Shown: in pieces, positions 4,837-58,009 of the stretch
How the letters are laid out: every line of letters starts with the position of its first letter
Numbering within the stretch: position 1 is the stretch's first letter
Assembly (NCBI GenBank): GCA_039208735.1
Contig: JBCCQY010000007.1
Coordinates: 32,001 to 96,000, forward strand
Length of the DNA stretch: 64,000 nucleotides
Origin: Myxococcota bacterium
GTDB lineage: Bacteria; Myxococcota_A; UBA796; GCA-2862545
Direction: 5' to 3'
Made by a program: the position numbers and the translations under genes
Notes under the pieces: model-generated
The model's database searches: none
Seen by the model: the letters and a program-made list of their open reading frames with translations, nothing else
What the model was told of the DNA's origin: nothing

Positions 4837-7560
4837 ATGGCGACGGACTCCATCTGGACGGTGATCGACGGTGAGGTCGACCTGAACCGGGGCGTTGTGG
4901 TGCGCCAGGGCGACGTGCACACCTTGACTACCCGCGAGCTTCAACTCCTCCGCTATCTCGTCACGAATGAGGGCGAAGCTGTGCATCGGGACGCTCTGCT
5001 ACGGGACGTCTGGGGATACCAGGGACGAATTCCCTCCACCCGGGCCCCCGACTTTGCGGTCCGCCGGCTGCGCAGCAAGATCGAACCCGACCCCTCGAAC
5101 CCTCAGCTCCTGCTTACCGTGCGGAACCATGGGTATCGGCTGGTTCGCCCCGCGACTACGGACCCGACCAGCCTCCCCATCAAGCCACAGCCACCTCAAT
5201 CAAGTCTGCCCCACCAGCATGATTCCTTCGTGGGTCGCCGTGAGTTGCTGGAGCAATTGCAGAACAGCCTTGCGCACACCACGGTCGTGACGCTGCTTGG
5301 TCCGGGAGGCTCGGGCAAGACCCGCATGGCCGTCCAATACGCCACCCTGCAAGCCGAAGAAGTCTGCTTTTGCGAGCTGTCCGGCATCGAGGATGTGGGC
5401 GGCCTGATGGCTTGTGTGGCGCATGTGCTCGGCGTGAGCACCCCAGACCCGGACCGAGATTCCTTGGGCCAAGTGCTTGAGGGAAGAGGCAAGGTCCTCG
5501 TCATCTTGGATGGCGCAGAAGGGCTGGCTTCAACGCTGAACGAACGGGTGGCCCACTGGCGCAGTCAAGCTCCCCAGGCTCGTTTCCTGCTCACGAGTCG
5601 GGTTCGGTTCCGGATGCCAGGGGAATTGGCACTGTTCGTGGGCCCGCTTGCGCCCGAAGAAGGGGCGGCCTTGTTCCGCGAGCGTGCGCGAACCGCAGGT
5701 GCTCCGCCGATCGGACCTGCCCATGAGCGCGCCCTGTCGGAACTCGTCTACCTCCTCGATGGGCTACCCCTTGCCATCGAACTCGCGGCCGCCCGAAGCC
5801 CCGTTCTGTCGCTCGAGGGGCTCGTGGCCAAGATGAGCGAACGCTTCAAGCTGCTCACCGAACGACGCGGCACGGGCTCCCACGCCACACTGCGAGCGGT
5901 CCTCGAAGCGTCCTGGTCGCGAACCGATGCCGAGTGCCGAGAGGCCCTGGCCCAGCTTTCCGTCTTTCCCGGTAGCTTTACCCTCGAAGCTGCCGAGGCG
6001 GTGGTCCGCGTCGAAAACGCCTGGACGATGGATCTGTTGGAACGCCTTGTTGATCAGAGCTTGGTGCGACTGCAGGACCGGGGACGTTTTCGCATGTTGC
6101 ACTCGGTTCGCGAGTTTGCTGCGGAGCACCTCGACGACCCCATCGCAGCGGAAGTCCGACACGGCCGCTACTACGCCGGCCTCGACGCCGAGCCCAACGC
6201 CATCGAAACCACCCAACCGGTGCTCGGCATCCGTCGCTTGGCGATGACCAACGAGCGTGAGAACCTCGTAACGGCCTGCCGAAGAGCCGTCGCCCGAGGC
6301 GATGGCGAGGTCGCACCCCAGGTCTTGAGCTGGCTCACCCATGTCGTGTCCATGCAGGGTGGGCGAGCCTTGCTTCGGGAGTTGACAGATCTGGTGGCCA
6401 CGGTGCCTGGCCTCACCCCCATCGGACAAGCCGCCATCGAAGGAGCCCGGGGCCTGCTGAAGGAGCTCAGCGCCCCCACCGAGACGATTCAACATTGGCG
6501 CGCGGAGCGGGACCTCAGCCTCGCCGGCGGACATGCCTACCGCGCCACAGGAGCGCTGGTGAGGTTGGCCCACAAGGTTCGCTGGCTGCAGGGCCACGAC
6601 GAGGCACGAGCCCTCTACAACCAGGCCATTGCCGAGGCTCAGGCCGTAGGCGCAGCTGAACTCGAAGCGCGGGCCCTCCACGGGTTGGGCCAGATTGCGC
6701 TTACGGAGTGGAAGCTGTCCGAGGCCAAAGAGTGGATGCAGCGCGCCATCGCGAGAAGCCGGGAAGGCCACCATCCGGCCTACGAAAGCCGCATTCAGTC
6801 CACGTTGGCCAAGCTGTCCGCAGCCCTTGGCGACCCGGAGCGCGCCGAACGGCTGCTACTCCGCGCCTTAGAGACCGCGGACCGGTACGGCGAAAGTGTT
6901 CATGCCGCGAGACTCGAGTGCGACATCGGCATGATGCGCCATATGCAGGGCGCGTTCGATGCTGCGACCGAGGCACTCGACCGGTCCCTGGAATCGGCTC
7001 GACGCCTGGGCTGCAGCCCCACCACCATCGCCACCGTCATCATCCGAAAGGCGTTTGGAGCCCTACTCCAAGGGAAGGACAACGAGGCCCGTGACCTTGC
7101 CGAACAGGGGCTCCAACGCATCGCCGGCTTCGCCCCTTCGTACCAGCAGGGATTAGGCCACTACATCGTCGCCATGGTGAGTCACCGTCGCGGAGAGGAG
7201 TCCCTCGCGGCGCAGGCGTGGCAACGGGGCATTGAGATCTGTGAAGCGGTCAACGAACCCTTGATTGCAGGCCATCATCGGTTGGCACGAGCCAGCCACC
7301 ATGCCTCACAGGGTCGCTTTGGGGCGGCTCACGCCGACCTCGACGCGGTCAAACAGACCCCTGCGAAATTCGATGATGGCTTTTTGTGGTCGCGTTGGTT
7401 GGCCGTGAAGGCCGAGGTCACCTGGTTGGAGGGCAACCACGACGCGGCCCATGAGTGGTTGGCCCAAGCCGAAGCAAAGCGGTGGCCCATGCGCTTCGAC
7501 GCCACGTCCGAGATCGAACGCGTGCGACGGATCCTTGCAGGGACCGCAACGACCCCATAG
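4837..7560 (+). CDS. OmpR-type winged helix + NB-ARC-like (STAND) ATPase + TPR regulator
   Basis: LTTRELQLLRYL...VRRLRSKIEPDPSNPQLLLTVRNHGY (wHTH); FVGR, GPGGSGKT Walker A, LDGLPLAIELAA; TPR-like helical C-terminus. Confidence 0.88.
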   Translation: MATDSIWTVIDGEVDLNRGVVVRQGDVHTLTTRELQLLRYLVTNEGEAVHRDALLRDVWGYQGRIPSTRAPDFAVRRLRSKIEPDPSNPQLLLTVRNHGYRLVRPATTDPTSLPIKPQPPQSSLPHQHDSFVGRRELLEQLQNSLAHTTVVTLLGPGGSGKTRMAVQYATLQAEEVCFCELSGIEDVGGLMACVAHVLGVSTPDPDRDSLGQVLEGRGKVLVILDGAEGLASTLNERVAHWRSQAPQARFLLTSRVRFRMPGELALFVGPLAPEEGAALFRERARTAGAPPIGPAHERALSELVYLLDGLPLAIELAAARSPVLSLEGLVAKMSERFKLLTERRGTGSHATLRAVLEASWSRTDAECREALAQLSVFPGSFTLEAAEAVVRVENAWTMDLLERLVDQSLVRLQDRGRFRMLHSVREFAAEHLDDPIAAEVRHGRYYAGLDAEPNAIETTQPVLGIRRLAMTNERENLVTACRRAVARGDGEVAPQVLSWLTHVVSMQGGRALLRELTDLVATVPGLTPIGQAAIEGARGLLKELSAPTETIQHWRAERDLSLAGGHAYRATGALVRLAHKVRWLQGHDEARALYNQAIAEAQAVGAAELEARALHGLGQIALTEWKLSEAKEWMQRAIARSREGHHPAYESRIQSTLAKLSAALGDPERAERLLLRALETADRYGESVHAARLECDIGMMRHMQGAFDAATEALDRSLESARRLGCSPTTIATVIIRKAFGALLQGKDNEARDLAEQGLQRIAGFAPSYQQGLGHYIVAMVSHRRGEESLAAQAWQRGIEICEAVNEPLIAGHHRLARASHHASQGRFGAAHADLDAVKQTPAKFDDGFLWSRWLAVKAEVTWLEGNHDAAHEWLAQAEAKRWPMRFDATSEIERVRRILAGTATTP

Positions 7561-47557: not shown

Positions 47558-50515
47558 TCAAACGGATGCTACCATACGATTCAAAAGACGGAGTGCGTAA
47601 GGGCCTTGGGCCGCGAGCGGCTGCCAGGGTTCTCCATCGAACCATCTGGCCAATCGCTCACCCGCCCTGCGCTCACACGCGAAAACGGGTCGCGCGGCGG
47701 CCAGAATCCCCGATGCATCGCCTTTTTTCGACTGAAAGCGAGCTAGGCTTAGGAAAAACCGAATGAGACTCTCGCGGCGGGGCCCGAGCAGCTGGGTCGC
47801 TTTGTCAAGGGCATTGCCGTAGCACCGGCAAGCTGCCGCCAGGTTGCCCTGCAAATGCTCGACGTTCCCCAAAAGCATATCCGCAAAGGCTTGACTGCTT
47901 CGAAACTGCAGGTCGCCCCTGGACCAACCGGGGGACAAGGTATGCAACACGGAGTGGGCGATTTCAGCCCCCGAGGTAAGGTTACCGTATTCGATGTCGC
48001 ATATCGCAATTATAAGCTTGCACTCTGCAGCCGACCGTTGTTGCTCAGCCTCAACAAAGTACCGTACTGCCGCACTGGCGTAGGTGCGTGCTTGGTCGTG
48101 GTCGGGCACGTGTAAGAAGTACTCTGCGTGCTCACGGTGACATTGGGCCATGCCCGTGACGTGCCCGTCGGCGACCGCCAATGCAGCCGAAAGGTCCGCG
48201 TAGGCCTCGTACAGACGCCCCTCACGCATCAGGACTTTACCCCGTGCGTTCCGAGACATCCCTTCCATCGCAACCAGCCCTAACCGGCGTGAGAGCGTCA
48301 ACGCGTCTTCGAACGCCAACTTTGCCTGACGCACCTCGCCCATCCGTAGGAAGAGCGCCCCGCGGTTGAGGTGTCCTAAAATCACCGGGCCCGGCTCACC
48401 GGTGCGCTTCGCGGCCACCATGCCGCGATCGAGGTGTTTCGCGGCTGCATCGGCCTGGCAGGTCCAGCGGTGCCATTGCCCGAGCGACAGGTGGGTGTTC
48501 GCGATCAACTTGTCGTTGCCCTCGTCCTCTGCCAGGGCAAGGCTCTTGTGTAAGAGGTCCAGAGCAGCCTCACCATGCTCAAGGTGCAGCAGGTGAATCC
48601 CGAGCGCCGCCATCAGCGCCGAGTGCAACGGACCTTGCCCCGCCGCAAGCGTCGCGCGCATCGGCTCAAGGGCCGGCGCTCCGGGCTCGGCCGTCATCAA
48701 GGGGGCCGCATCGAGGATGAGGGCCTCGGCAGCCCCAAAATCGGTTTGAAGGGAATGTTCATGCGCTTCTAGGACGTTAGTGAGTTCCGCCAAGAACGAG
48801 GATAGAACCTAACTCATCCTTGATGTTTGGGCCTGCGTTCGCCACTCCCGCACGCGCTGGCGATAGGCCTTTAGGTGTCGGGCTCGCAGCACATCGTCAT
48901 CCTCGAGACGCTCGGCGGCAAAGAAGCGCACGGTGTCGAGCAAGGTGAAAACGGCCTGGCCGTACCGATCGAGGCGCGTGTTCAGCAATGACTTGCTGAC
49001 GAGCGATGAAAGCTGTACGAGCGAGTCGTCGACGGTCAACACCTCACTTGCAATGCGCGCACTGAACGGTCCTCGGAACACCGTGCACTGGGAGAGGGTG
49101 GTTCGTTCCTCATTGGTGAGCATGGACCAAGACCAGTCCACCATTCCTCTTAGGGTCGACGCCCGAGGAGTTGCGGGCCGAGGCCCCAACAGGTCCAACC
49201 GTTCGGGGAGAAGCCGCAGGAGTTCGTCGAGGCCAAGGGTCCGAACCTTGGGCACCGCCAGCTCAAGGGCCAAGGGAATGCCCTCGAGAGCCTCGACGAG
49301 TTGATCGAGGCCTTCGAGGTCCTCCAGAGCTTTCTGGGACCATCCTGCTTGACTCATCCGCTCAATGAGAAGTCGCACCCCATCGTCCGTACTCAATGGA
49401 CCGACGACAATTCGCTGTTCGCCTCGGCCAAGGGTGGCCTCACGGGACGTCGCCAACACCCGCAGCTCTCCTGCTGCGGCAAGCCAGCGTTCGACGTGAC
49501 GCGCCACGGGCCCCGCGATCCGTTCGATCGTATCGAGCACCAGCCAACCCGGCCCAACCCGGCGGAGGGCTCGGGCGATCTGGACCGTTTGGGCCTCCGG
49601 GCTCATGGCCGGTTCCGCTCGAACCCCGAGCGCCTGGCGAACGCCGCGCAACAACCCTTCGGCATCCTTGAGGTTCGCAGCATCGACCCACCATACGGGC
49701 GGCCCCCGACGCTCCGTGAGCTGCCGAACGAACTCAAGCGCGAGACGCGTCTTCCCCATTCCCCCCATGCCCGTCAACGTGACCCAGCGCCCGCCCTTAA
49801 ACCTCTTCTCAAGAGCGCTTTGTTCAACAGAACGCCCCACGAACGCGTCGAGCGCCAACGGCGCGGGGGCGGCTTCGGGCTCGAACCGGACCCCCGCCCC
49901 GCGCACCGTCAGAAGATGGCGCGGATTCATGGGATCGGACTCAATCTTCGCGCGGAGGCGATGCAGAGTGGTGTGGAGGGTGCTCGTGCGTACGCCCGCT
50001 GCGTAGCCCCAGACGTCCTGCAGCAGCCGTTCCCGCGTCACTACGCGGCCTCGCCGGTCATCGAGGTACCGCAGGATGGCCACCTCCATGGGAGTCAGCG
50101 TCACCCGCCCCTCCGGTCCCAAGACGCAACCCACATCAAAGTCGATCGACCGATCGTGGAGGCGAATGTTCCGATCGTGAAGGGCCTCGGGGGGAGCGAA
50201 TCCACGCTCGCCAGGCAGGCCGTCGAAGCGAATCCCGAGCCCTCGCACGGTCTTGAGGTGATCCGGCGCTTTGGGATCTCGCTCCACTTTCATCCGCAGC
50301 CGACGCAGCGTGAAATCCACCATGCGTCGTCCCGGAGCAGCCGTCCCCCAAACTGCTTGCTGGAGCTGGGGCCGCGGAACCGTCTGTCCTTCATGCTGGA
50401 CGAGGTACCGTAAAAGCGATAGTTCGAGCGGAGTCAATTCCACATCGCCATCGGAGCGGACCACCCGCCCGCTCGCCAGGTCGACCGTACAGTCAGCGAA
50501 CTGCCTTGGTGTCAT
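47558..50515 (-). pseudogene. Tandem wHTH + NB-ARC-like ATPase + TPR regulator interrupted by a single in-frame TAG (48809-48811)
   Basis: Two wHTH domains, GMGGMGKT, EGIPLALELA; reads RMS*VLSSFLAELTNVLEA in one frame into a 411-codon TPR ORF; paralog of 4837-7560. Confidence 0.75.
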
Positions 50516-50631
50516 CGGCACCCCAGGATCCGGATTCCGTCGGGGGTAACCGTCTTCGGGAGACTTGAAAACCATTCGGCGCCTTGTCGCGACCTTAATG
50601 CAACAGGTCCCGTCGGGCGCTTTTCACGTGG

Positions 50632-50655
50632 CGTAAGGAAGCTCGACTCCTTACG
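50632..50655. promoter_or_regulatory. Inverted repeat CGTAAGGA-N8-TCCTTACG in divergent intergenic region
   Basis: Perfect 8-bp arms at 50632-50639 and 50648-50655. Confidence 0.45.
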
Positions 50656-50662
50656 TCGTGTA

Positions 50663-50741
50663 TGGGTGTGGGACTCGTGGCGGGACTTCCGAACTCGTCT
50701 TCTAAGCGAAACATCGCAGTCGCGCACTTCCTCCCCACCCA
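50663..50741 (+). ncRNA. Candidate Y-RNA-like/tRNA-mimic structured RNA
   Basis: Outer 10-bp stem with one bulged U (50663-73/50732-41), inner stem (50677-87/50718-27), apical hairpin TCGT-CTTCTAA-GCGA; directly upstream of Ro60-like gene. Confidence 0.5.
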
Positions 50742-50809: not shown

Positions 50810-52216
50810 GTGCTCGACGAAGGGGTGCTGGAGCGAGAAGACGTGGCGTTGTTCATCAACGCAGCGACGACGTGCACCGGCCAATCCGAGTTTTACGGAG
50901 ATGCCCGCGAGCAACGTGTCTCGCTAGGTTTCCTGCACGATTACGTTTTCGGTAACTACCGACGTCTGTACGCATTGTGCCTGGCCGCAGGCATCAACCA
51001 CTTCAACCGCGCAGCGATCGTGCACCGCCTCCTGGCTGCGGGAGCCCCTTCGGACCCCGTCCGCCGGGTGGAAGAAGCCGCGTTGATCGCGGGAGCCCTT
51101 CGGCAGTTGCCCCCGCAGCGCGTCTACCGGCTGTTTACGACGCTGCGCCACCACCGCGTCAACAATCGACGGAGCCGGGCCACCATTCACACCTGGCTGG
51201 CCCAACGGCCCGACCTAACGTTCGATGCAGTGAAGTACCGGGGTCCCCTTCGTTCGGCCCTACGTCATGCCCATCTGCCGCTCGACGTGGAACTCCGCGA
51301 GTTTCTATTCGAGGGGCCGAACCACCGACCGCAGTGGTCCGCTCCGCTGCTCGATGCCTTTCGCCGAGCCCGCTACGATCAGCGAGCCATCTACGAGCTG
51401 CCTTACACCGTGGCCGAAGGCCTCGCGGCCACCAAGGGCATTCCCCGGGAGCGCTTTCTCAAGACCATCGAGCCTCGGCTAACGGCCGCGGAACGGGTTC
51501 GTCTCAACCGCTTGGCAGATGACGGAGGCTGGGCCACCCTCGATCTAGAACGCGTCCCCTTGGACCGCCTTTGCGTGTTGGTGCTTGCCCAACCCGTCGG
51601 GGAACGGTCGGAGGCGTTCCGGGCGGCGCTGAACCACCAGGCCAAACGCGTCTGGCGCGGTCAGGCGTCGCCGGCCCAGCACATTCACGTGGTGCTCGAC
51701 AACAGCTTTTCCTCACGATCCGGGGCCCAAAAGCGGAACCAAGCGTTGGCCGTCACGCTGGGATGCACCAAAGTGCTCGAAGCGGGGGCAAAGAGCTACC
51801 GCCGGTGGTGGACGAGCGGGGCGACCGATGACCTGCGCGTCACGCCTCGCGGCCAGACCGACCTGGCGACCCCGTTGCTCGCCGCATTGGAGGGAAAGCC
51901 CGATCTCGTGGTCGTGGTTTCGGATGGCTTCGACAACGATCCTCCAGGGGCGGCAGGCGAGGTTGTCCGGCTCTTCCGCACCCACATCGACCCCAAGCGA
52001 CACACCACCATCGTCCACGTAAATCCCGTGTTCGATGCCCAGCGCTTCATGCCAAGACCCCTAGGTCCAGGTGTGCCTATGGTCGGAATTCGGGATCCGG
52101 CCAACCTGCCGCTCAAGCTCGGCTTCGCATCCTTCGTGCACGGGTCGTCTCGCATCGAAGCCCTTGAAGCCTGGCTCCTCAAGCGCGCCGAACCCTGGCT
52201 GCGGGAGGTCCCATGA
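50810..52216 (+). CDS. Divergent Ro60/TROVE-like protein (helical N-terminus + vWA)
   Basis: AVKYRGPLRSALRHAH resembles Ro60/Rsr KYR...LLRLxH; complete vWA MIDAS VLDNSFS...TDLA...VVSDG. Confidence 0.7.
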   Translation: MLDEGVLEREDVALFINAATTCTGQSEFYGDAREQRVSLGFLHDYVFGNYRRLYALCLAAGINHFNRAAIVHRLLAAGAPSDPVRRVEEAALIAGALRQLPPQRVYRLFTTLRHHRVNNRRSRATIHTWLAQRPDLTFDAVKYRGPLRSALRHAHLPLDVELREFLFEGPNHRPQWSAPLLDAFRRARYDQRAIYELPYTVAEGLAATKGIPRERFLKTIEPRLTAAERVRLNRLADDGGWATLDLERVPLDRLCVLVLAQPVGERSEAFRAALNHQAKRVWRGQASPAQHIHVVLDNSFSSRSGAQKRNQALAVTLGCTKVLEAGAKSYRRWWTSGATDDLRVTPRGQTDLATPLLAALEGKPDLVVVVSDGFDNDPPGAAGEVVRLFRTHIDPKRHTTIVHVNPVFDAQRFMPRPLGPGVPMVGIRDPANLPLKLGFASFVHGSSRIEALEAWLLKRAEPWLREVP

Positions 52217-53343
52217 TCTTGGAAGCCCGAGGCCTCGACCTGCGACCGCCACAGGTTTGGGGCACCATTCGGCTCGTTCCCATCGTGAGGGACGTTCCGC
52301 TCGTGGACCTTCGGCTCGCCGTCCGACCCTATGAGGGCGCCATCGCGGTCACCGAAGTGTCGAAGCGACATCGGTACATCAGCTACGTGCCCCATGGCAT
52401 CGTGATGCGATGGAATGAGCGAGGCGAAGCCGCGGTGCCCGTTGAAACGCGCATCGGCGCTCGCGAGCTACGGCAGGAAGGCCCCGTGGTCTGGCTCAAA
52501 CGCATGGTCCGCCGCGAAGCGCGCGACCAACTGAGACTGTTGCCCTTGCACACGGCCATGGAAGGCTTCTTGGCCTTGCATTTCGGCGGACCCCAGGTGG
52601 CTCACCGGTACTACTCCAAGCGCGTTCTGTCGGACGGCTTCGATCCTCGAGTCGAAGGCTCGGTTCGCGGCGAAGCGCTCCCGGGTCTCGATGAAGCATT
52701 GCGAACCTTCGAAGTCCATGACGGGCAGTGTGGCATGTTGATTTTCGTGGGCGACCACCTGGCTTCGGCCATGCTCGTCGCCCATCCAGACGACTACCTC
52801 GCCCTGCACGAGGCCCTCCTGCAGGACTGCTATGGCACGATCGTGGCCCGCTTCGGATGGGGGGCTCGCCGGCAACCCCTGCCCGGCGTGACCCTCGAAG
52901 GAACGAGCTTTGAAGCGATCGGCACCTCCCTCCAGCGTGCGCGGGACACCTGGGCCTGGTACGCCCGCGAGATGTCGACCGGCCTTTTGGGGCGGTCGAT
53001 CCAGGCCACCACCCTACGTCAGGTAGGCAACTACTCGTTGGTTCGATTCTCGACGGGCTTCGATGTGGAGCGCGTGACACAGGACGGCGAGCACCTTGGT
53101 GAAGCCTTGGTTGCCGCGGACGGCACCCTTGCGTATCTCAAGACCTACCGTCTCGATCGGGGACAGAGCCGACGGGGACGGATGTTGTCGCGGCTCGCAG
53201 AGCACGATTGGGACATCCGAGCCCTGGCCAATGCGGACGGGCACGGCAAGATCGGCCGTGTCGTGGGCGATTTGGTGGCCGCAGGCCTCGACTGGGTGGT
53301 TCGAGACGAGATCCGACGTCAAGGCGGGTCGGAAGGCGTGTGA
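52213..53343 (+). CDS. ARPP-2-like domain protein
   Basis: PPQVWGTIRLVPIVRD..DLRL, YISYVPHG, LRLLPLHTAMEGFLALHFGGP, ALRTFEVHDGQCG, YLKTYRL; family name from memory; ATGA overlap. Confidence 0.6.
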   Translation: MILEARGLDLRPPQVWGTIRLVPIVRDVPLVDLRLAVRPYEGAIAVTEVSKRHRYISYVPHGIVMRWNERGEAAVPVETRIGARELRQEGPVVWLKRMVRREARDQLRLLPLHTAMEGFLALHFGGPQVAHRYYSKRVLSDGFDPRVEGSVRGEALPGLDEALRTFEVHDGQCGMLIFVGDHLASAMLVAHPDDYLALHEALLQDCYGTIVARFGWGARRQPLPGVTLEGTSFEAIGTSLQRARDTWAWYAREMSTGLLGRSIQATTLRQVGNYSLVRFSTGFDVERVTQDGEHLGEALVAADGTLAYLKTYRLDRGQSRRGRMLSRLAEHDWDIRALANADGHGKIGRVVGDLVAAGLDWVVRDEIRRQGGSEGV

Positions 53344-55538: not shown

Positions 55539-55732
55539 AACTGCTCCAGACGTTGGTGCTTTCAACGTTACTCGGGCTCCGGCTCCGGGTTCGGAGTCTT
55601 CGTGGAGGGACGCTTCTTCCGGTGGCCCGCCGCCTCCGGTTACGGGCTGGGTAACCGTTGACTCTGGGCGTGTTGGGCACGTCCGACGTCCTGGGCACCA
55701 GGCGCAGTCGGCTTGGCCGAGCACCCAGACCG

Positions 55733-56317
55733 ATGGAGGCTTGCATAGCGCTGCCAGAACCATCGCCAGCCGTCACGTTGGAGGACTTCCTCGAACTCGA
55801 GCGAGCCACTGGACTCCGGCACGAGTGGATCAAAGGCATGGCCTCCGCCATGGCCGGGGGAAGCGCGGAGCACTCCAGAATCAAGACGAACCTGCTGCTG
55901 GCCATCGGACGACAACTCGAGGGTTCCGACTGTCACGTCGCGGACAGCGACCAGCGCATTCGGGTCGAGTTGACAGGAGCAACGCTGTACGCCGACGTCG
56001 CCGTGATCTGTGGCCCCTATGCCTACGCATCCGACGACCTACAGGCGGTGACAAACCCGAAGATCGCAGTGGAGGTCCTGTCCTCGACCACCGAGGACTA
56101 CGATCGAGGCACCAAATTCCAGCACTATCGCAGGGTTCCTGGGCTCCTAGAATACGTATTGATCAGCCAGGACGAGCGCCGCATTGAGGTGCGCAGGCGC
56201 GCCGAGGACAAGTGGGTGCTCGAAGAGCACACCTCGGGTGCGCTCGAACTGCTCGAAGGGATCACTGTACCATTCGACACGATCTATGATTTCCGGCATC
56301 TGCGTCCCGAAGGGTGA
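55733..56317 (+). CDS. Uma2 (DUF820) family endonuclease-like protein
   Basis: RHEW..G...AMAGGSAEHSRI, YADVAVIC, VEVLSSTTEDYDRGTKF..YRR...LEYVLISQ. Confidence 0.9.
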   Translation: MEACIALPEPSPAVTLEDFLELERATGLRHEWIKGMASAMAGGSAEHSRIKTNLLLAIGRQLEGSDCHVADSDQRIRVELTGATLYADVAVICGPYAYASDDLQAVTNPKIAVEVLSSTTEDYDRGTKFQHYRRVPGLLEYVLISQDERRIEVRRRAEDKWVLEEHTSGALELLEGITVPFDTIYDFRHLRPEG

Positions 56318-57344: not shown

Positions 57345-57705
57345 AGGGGTGATTGTCAAGAGGGGAGACTGATAACTTGGGGATGAGCTGTGGATACCCT
57401 GCGGATGAGCTGGGGACAGTCATGCCGCACTTGGGAGAAGGAGATCGTAGAGCTTGGCCGGCGGCTGGTCGCCGAGGGACTGGTGCGGCCGTTCGTGGTT
57501 GTAGAAGCGGAAGTAGGCGCGGAGCCGGTCGCGAGCCTCACCCAGGTCGTCGTAGGCGTGCAGGTAGATCTCCTCGTACTTGACCGATCTCCAGAGCCGC
57601 TCGATGAAGACGTTGTCGAGCCAGCGACCGCGGCCGTCCATGCTGATCGCGATGTCTCGGGACTTCAGGATGCCGGTGAAGTCGGACGAGGTGAACTGCG
57701 AATTC
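57345..57705 (-). mobile_element. IS3-family transposase C-terminal fragment and probable right end
   Basis: SQFTS...ISMDGRGRWLDNVFIERLWRSVKYEE..YNHERPHQSLGDQPP; 5' part missing. Confidence 0.88.
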
Positions 57706-57712
57706 GATCGCC

Positions 57713-58009
57713 TCATTCCTCAACGGCCTGCCGAATCCACACGATCTTCGGCGGACCTCGTAGGAAGGGTCGCAGCCGCTCCATGGACCCCGTCTCCCGC
57801 CGCCAGGCTGTGTAGGCGTGGAAGTGTTCGCGGGTCTCCCACCCGAGCACGGTCCACAGGGCACCATCATCGTCTTGGGGAATCCAGACCGCGGCGTAGG
57901 TACAGCCCGGATACGCGCGTGTCTCTCGAAGGATGTCGTGGGTGATGGCGATAAGCTCCCTGCGTGTCTCGGGCTCCACGGTCATCTGCAGTACGACCCT
58001 CTCAGCCAT
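57713..58009 (-). CDS. Antibiotic-biosynthesis-monooxygenase (ABM) family protein
   Basis: ETRAYPGC...WETREHFHAYTAWRRETG; divergent from lysR. Confidence 0.8.
   Translation of the reverse strand: MAERVVLQMTVEPETRRELIAITHDILRETRAYPGCTYAAVWIPQDDDGALWTVLGWETREHFHAYTAWRRETGSMERLRPFLRGPPKIVWIRQAVEE

Follow-up and report, generated by a model that had tools for sequence, protein, structure and literature searches.

We found that positions 50663..50741 on the plus strand of the window (the whole stretch of 64,000 nucleotides analysed, from a Myxococcota bacterium) belong to a conserved family of structured RNAs, which is apparently undescribed and is absent from Rfam. The RNA lies just upstream of a gene whose modelled product has the fold of Ro60, and its apical hairpin usually carries a loop built like the anticodon loop of a tRNA. 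We give a probability of about 55% to the reading that this is a Y-type RNA, with a scaffold bound by the Ro-like ring, an apical anticodon-loop mimic as effector module and the product of the next gene, ARPP-2, as partner enzyme.

The candidate Y-type element is composed of a terminal stem (P1), an internal loop, a second stem (P2), the sequence UUCCG(AA) and an apical hairpin, all read from the plus strand. The original prediction had placed the terminal stem at 50663-73/50732-41 with a bulged U50669, an inner helix, which includes mismatches, at 50677-87/50718-27, and a hairpin at the apex; these coordinates were confirmed on the sequence and reproduced by the minimum free energy fold of 50663-50741 (-31.8 kcal/mol, z -2.78, none of 200 shuffles as good). 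The 5' strand of P1 (50663..50673) holds the bulged U50669 within a conserved G-Y-GGGA-CU (G-Y-GG in 125 of 132 distinct copies, the ACU linker in 122), and its 3' strand (50732..50741) consists of UCCC-C and a variable part. The 5' strand of P2 (50677..50686) pairs with approximately 50719-50727, with compensatory changes at 8/8 pairs. It is followed in the internal loop by a conserved UUCCGAA (50687..50693), a candidate Ro-binding motif that contains CGAA (UUCCG in 122/132 copies, CGAA in 76/132), and by the apical hairpin (50695..50709), whose 7-nt loop (50699-50705) presents the triplet UCU at 50701-50703. Folding alone is weak evidence, because the minus strand folds comparably (z -2.80) and the z of the fold is only -0.98 once the flanks are included.

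What folding leaves weak is settled by conservation and covariation, which argue that the fold is real. As the original prediction would have it, the stems upstream of homologous genes covary: in an alignment of 87 distinct homologues, made with MAFFT from sequence only and comprising relatives that are not independent, two-sided (compensatory) changes were found at 20 of the 24 consensus pairs. Overall, 91.5% of the cells pair (96% in P1, 92.5% in P2 and 73-76% in the apical stem), and pairing falls to 36-45% in slid-register controls. The window copy scores 54 bits with the covariance model, being itself in the training set, and is the only copy that a search with this model found in its own genome (92.7% complete). 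A loose helix-descriptor scan was uninformative (59/102 loci on the plus strand and 56/102 on the minus strand) and was set aside.

The family follows the Ro-like gene closely. A regular-expression motif occurs upstream of the gene in 96/108 loci, a count that includes duplicates and two mis-anchored matches, and the covariance model matches 95 of 100 sources, most of which are training data; three of the five misses have no upstream DNA. The RNA lies on the strand of the gene in 123/123 loci, always within the 4 kb of a Ro60 ortholog expected of Y RNAs, with the start codon 6-579 nt away (median 27). The length of 80-130 nt, the long stem pairing the ends and the large internal loop are likewise those of Y RNAs. 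Gene and RNA are confined to the same 4 of 41 relatives. The 121 Streptomyces genomes hold 14 full-length genes, each of which adjoins the RNA, and 13 of these loci were not used for training; one extra match (G355) sits inside an open reading frame and was treated as chance. Among 141 cyanobacterial genomes, the 12 that are positive for the RNA all have the gene (11 are new), and four of five further gene-positive genomes have a divergent RNA copy when filters are off, one fragment-only genome being left out. The RNA was also present in both Nostoc plasmid loci tested. Myxobacteria, streptomycetes and cyanobacteria are hosts of both RNA and gene, and in the genomes searched no copy of the RNA occurred without the gene. 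The gene occurs without the RNA in locus L034, and L013 retains its 3' half only. A solo Ro-like gene is present at L175:2994-4439; both L105 and L175 are devoid of the RNA and of ARPP-2.

Seven loci carry two or three RNA copies in tandem. Such copies (L100:3523-3944; L035:3554-3935; L159; L160) often differ in the loop and in the flank of UUCCG, which suggests two paralogous RNA subtypes in cyanobacteria-like loci.

The element matches no known RNA family. None of the Rfam families reaches its gathering score, and the comparison with the Y and YrlA models gave no match up to E=10. A tRNA/tmRNA search of the window was negative, and membership in Rfam or among tRNAs and tmRNAs was rejected on these grounds. 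The original prediction had argued that the element is not a tRNA, having no TpsiC arm, and this holds: ARAGORN reports none in the window, and the element lacks the acceptor end and the D and T arms of a cloverleaf. Our literature searches, covering main texts and part of the Ro/TROVE literature, returned no description of this RNA, and the six relevant terms looked for were absent from the main text of a cyanobacterial RNA-structure survey.

The apical loop had been predicted to have the canonical anticodon-loop layout, and its composition is indeed far above chance: YU-NNN-R-[AC] fits 47 of 95 copies in an earlier set, against a mean of 1.6 and a maximum of 6 over 200 shuffles, and the strict pattern fits 28/58 after clustering at 80%. 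When the best 7-nt hairpin is picked in each copy, 98 of the 132 distinct copies have a 7-nt loop closed by at least three pairs at the homologous place; these show Y32 in 89, U33 in 86, R37 in 81 and A/C38 in 89, with position 34 flat. The other 34 copies are without such a loop, and loops of 8-9 nt are found in a quarter of copies; the full pattern fits 68/132. Except at 35-36, the position profile mirrors that of the tRNA loops in the genome from which the window comes (55 loops). The window loop is identical to the tRNA-Arg(UCU) loop of its own genome, and in all several copies have the exact loop sequence of a genuine tRNA (Asn, Lys, Tyr or Arg). The proposed mimicry of tRNA-Arg, on the other hand, did not stand, and we reject an Arg-specific role since the UCU triplet is not conserved: it occurs once among the 68 canonical loops, which hold 21 triplets dominated by CUG, AUG and UUG. 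Because triplets vary in this way and positions 32, 33, 37 and 38 are kept, it is the shape of the loop that is conserved and not its identity. The triplets AUG, AUU, UUA and CUA, also present among canonical loops, are to our knowledge not ordinary bacterial anticodons. We predict that the apical loop copies the shape of an anticodon loop rather than a particular tRNA, and that it does not decode.

The gene next to the RNA (50810..52216, plus strand) begins 68 nt downstream on the same strand; the protein is thus "divergent" in sequence and its gene is not divergently transcribed. It encodes a protein of 468 aa (P0001) with at least 856 relatives, which lies below Pfam TROVE detection: we obtained no Pfam (TROVE PF05731, vWA_Ro60), NCBIfam or PDB sequence match, and no sequence link to a solved Ro60. 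The original description of the neighbour as Ro60-like is instead borne out by comparison of its structure model (pLDDT 92), which resembles Ro60 along almost its full length and in which a helical TROVE ring is closed by a vWA domain as in Ro60/Rsr proteins. Among the Foldseek matches listed, all 11 at E<=0.001 are Ro60/TROVE structures (TM 0.49-0.62); VIA aligned 411 residues to 1yvp (Z 18.8, rmsd 4.7), and Atlas gave a TM of ~0.70 to TROVE and vWA_Ro60 clusters. The vWA domain has invariant DxSxS and DG motifs, and the MIDAS residues D297, S299, S301 and D372 are invariant over 60 rows. Based on the predicted model, we conclude that this protein has the Ro60 fold. A canonical TROVE gene was not found in the same genome (92.7% complete).

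The third component of the module, an ARPP-2 protein of 376 aa (52213..53343, plus strand; PF22549, E 1.9e-83), overlaps the stop of the Ro-like gene. ARPP-2 lies downstream of the Ro-like gene in 111/118 loci and is replaced by ARPP-1 in two of the other seven; the Ro-like protein and ARPP-2 are fused in one case (P0197). Prediction of a Ro-like/ARPP-2 complex scored 0.49 against 0.00 for the best control; contacts agree to at least 41%, with a partner pLDDT of 34-42. Of 157 solved complexes just 18 fall in this score range (<=0.60), as do the two mismatched pairs, out of 215, that passed. The model weakly favours a pairing of the two proteins. Extra DNA separates the two genes in a few loci (L179:6445-7184, L046, L071, L097 and L100), and on the Nostoc plasmid this DNA is XisH/XisI.

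A distant clade, ~25% identical to the Ro-like protein, occurs in large phage contigs and on an Alkaliphilus plasmid, together with ARPP-1 where checked. The plasmid locus holds a long variant of the scaffold (L181:3507-3686) with an AT-rich insert of ~110 nt. This RNA is 180 nt long and folds (z -3.96) with 11 bp in the outer stem and 8 bp in the second; it also contains UUCCGA, and it is located upstream of the Ro-like and ARPP-1 genes and downstream of a TerD gene. Of 97 phage loci, 26 satisfy a strict descriptor, giving a total of 32 tRNA-like bodies (D, anticodon and T arms) within two stems. These elements carry a RAC linker and a UWCAG-type motif in place of UUCCG, are often more than 1 kb from the genes or downstream of them, and received 24 different anticodon calls, odd ones in 10/32 against 21/135 among other calls. 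A missing CCA does not distinguish them (7/32 vs 42/135). Their enclosing stem covaries at 8/8 pairs over 34 elements, a selection (27 of the 32 plus seven picked by eye) that is biased to pair. With a threshold set afterwards, the phage model reaches at least 69 bits in 19 of the 33 phage loci that were not used for training, and it scores at most 64 bits in 13/20 ordinary-tRNA control loci. The phage and bacterial models do not cross-match significantly (best match 19.7 bits, E 0.12, in one search and none in the other). A position weight matrix of the 5' motif gave medians of -5.7 vs -7.9 (p 0.027) in what is a weak test, and its best site falls at the element in three bridging cases (L181, L182 and L213). 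L182 carries, downstream of the gene pair, a short form with a small hairpin (5867-5949) and a long form with a full tRNA-like body (6139-6267); a tRNA call with a CUA anticodon lies at 6454-6526. Architecture, gene context and these bridging cases suggest that the phage elements are homologous to the short bacterial RNA.

Searches among viruses were less informative. A regular-expression search gave a tRNA-like body in 2/80 pattern loci. The gene is present in neither of the two, one of which is truncated where its contig stops; none of 20 ordinary-tRNA loci held a Ro-like gene. We rejected the short form in viruses, since eight of nine pattern matches had no model match and the ninth (28.6 bits) lies inside a coding sequence. 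No close relative of the Ro-like protein was found in IMG/VR.

Several features of the loop would also fit a Y-type tether without any anticodon meaning, the apical loop being a U-turn at which ARPP-2 or an exoribonuclease such as PNPase docks. In passages of two earlier reports, Y RNAs are described as tethering Ro60 to effectors (PMC4201824; 10.1101/312249). U35 is enriched (72/98, tRNA position 35 being flat) and A34 and stop-reading triplets occur, so that a generic U-turn is conceivable; the non-anticodon triplets, the 8-9-nt loops and the L182 copy with only a small hairpin point the same way. However, such a tether accounts poorly for a profile that matches tRNA at 32, 33, 37 and 38 with a flat wobble position, for loops identical to those of real tRNAs, and for phage counterparts that hold real anticodon arms. 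We regard this explanation as rather unlikely.

The position of the RNA raises another alternative, a cis-acting 5' leader through which expression of the operon would be regulated, either by its own Ro-like product or by cleavage of the apical loop. TAnnnT is found 20-25 nt upstream of GGGA in 37/55 GC-rich homologues, while two control windows gave 0 and 1. Transcription is accordingly predicted to begin with the first base of P1 (in the window, near 50663-50664). The window's own putative -10 element (50652..50657, plus strand) is non-canonical in its last base and has an 18-nt spacing; a sigma-70 scan gave no match. The RNA is always 5' of the gene, at the predicted start of the transcript, and never alone, as a leader would be; in 18/123 loci the start codon is at most 12 nt from the stem end, so that the ribosome-binding site could be inside P1. 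Against this, the spacing is unconstrained (more than 30 nt in 44/123 loci), no terminator was found in the window, complete RNA copies occur in tandem, and the phage counterparts are often distant from the genes or downstream of them. A leader is, in our view, unlikely. In one ice metatranscriptome, three low-depth contigs cover the RNA, parts of the gene and the upstream DNA alike. Finally, that the conservation reflects an operator or promoter element in the DNA, as the equal folding of both strands might suggest, is highly improbable, since nested helices with G-U pairs on the plus strand and two-sided covariation effectively refute it and the -10 box lies just outside the conserved element.

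Other features of the window surround the module. A 10-bp inverted repeat (50630-50657), a possible operator, separates the RNA from a divergently transcribed regulator gene and overlaps the putative -10 box; it was not seen in the closest homologue (L002). The regulator (48809-50575, minus strand) has two Trans_reg_C domains and a STAND/NB-ARC ATPase, and is followed after 16 nt by a TPR gene (47558-48793, minus strand); the two may represent one split STAND-TPR protein. Further along, judged by their motifs, 55658-56317 (minus strand) is probably a Uma2-type nuclease-like gene and 57420-57716 (minus strand) a fragment of an IS3-type transposase.

Considering all the above results, we prefer the Y-type reading. 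Transcription would start at the first stem, and the Ro-like ring would bind the bulged stem and the UUCCG(AA) loop. The apical loop would then act as effector module, recruiting tRNA-anticodon-directed enzymes to a Ro-ARPP complex in which ARPP-2 is the likely enzyme; candidate recruits are anticodon nucleases of phages or competitors, or enzymes modifying U35 tRNAs. Within this reading, we favour a putative role of the RNA as bait or sensor for anticodon-directed toxins. More tentatively, and with some doubt, one may envisage an undescribed three-part system made of a Ro60-fold ring, an ARPP enzyme and a small RNA that is a non-permuted tRNA mimic. Large phages would use whole tRNA-like bodies with drifting anticodons, mis-called as tRNA genes, and bacteria would have pared the RNA to the anticodon arm as a toxin bait or sensor, coupled to ARPP-dependent processing of RNA ends or ADP-ribose.

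These findings would define a lineage of Ro60 that escapes TROVE profiles and has an RNA family of its own, in hosts that include the tractable Myxococcus xanthus DK1622 (protein ABF85999.1). The orphan ARPP domain gains an RNA-linked context, and the RNA, at 80 nt, offers a minimal model for studying the reason for tRNA mimicry among bacterial Y RNAs. Should the phage elements be its long form, some of the odd-anticodon 'tRNAs' of large phages would be partner RNAs of Ro proteins and not decoding tRNAs.

The known systems closest to ours share some of these features. From the portions considered, Iyer 2021 reports that some jumbo phages have ROT/TROVE proteins whose partners are tRNA-like, and a 2026 preprint on tRNA mimics covers three other families. 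Iyer et al. 2022 (PMC9503650) place ARPP-domain genes in conserved neighbourhoods, as here, and propose that ARPP acts on ribose moieties; in the sections considered, however, the partners are ARG, HIRAN, WYL and a deacetylase, with no mention of Ro/TROVE or RNA. Metazoan Y RNAs share with our RNA a single bulged pyrimidine in the lower stem, an internal loop, an upper stem and a pyrimidine-rich tail, but their bulged-helix motif GGUCCGA occurs in 3/132 copies here, and protein identity is 10-15%. The Ro-like protein has its second-highest structural score (Z 17.5) with the phiRo60 protein of Thermus phage phiLo (PMC12135203), whose Yrl1/Yrl2 RNAs are described in part of that report as stem-bulge-stem RNAs encoded upstream with CGAA in the internal loop. 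That this CGAA matters for Yrl RNA binding, according to the same part, is the reason why we propose UUCCG(AA) as candidate Ro-binding motif. The portion considered describes neither an ARPP partner nor an anticodon loop for phiRo60, and CGAA is far from universal in our family. Tandem copies are a further likeness, to YrlA/YrlB and, within the same limits, to phiLo Yrl1/Yrl2. With YrlA our RNA shares the 80-130 nt length, the same-strand position beside a Ro60-fold gene, the end-pairing stem and a tRNA-like effector module. In the excerpts considered, Chen et al. 2014 (PMC4201824) define YrlA by D and T arms together with GNCGAA, and Wang et al. 2018 (10.1101/312249) describe it as permuted, without an anticodon loop. 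GNCGAA, which lies near the 5' end of YrlA (GNCGAAN0-1G), is found in 1/132 copies of our RNA and GTTCRA in 3/132; our RNA has no D or T arms, so that it does not belong to YrlA; CGAA alone (76/132) is sited after P2, as part of the UUCCG(AA) that follows the second stem, and only the anticodon-like hairpin is kept. In contrast to the circularly permuted YrlA, the phage counterparts have their acceptor side connected to the scaffold, which leaves the anticodon loop intact. We conclude that the RNA probably resembles a Y RNA in its working and is not YrlA, and that its usual anticodon-like loop sets it apart from the described bacterial Y RNA, which is without such a loop.
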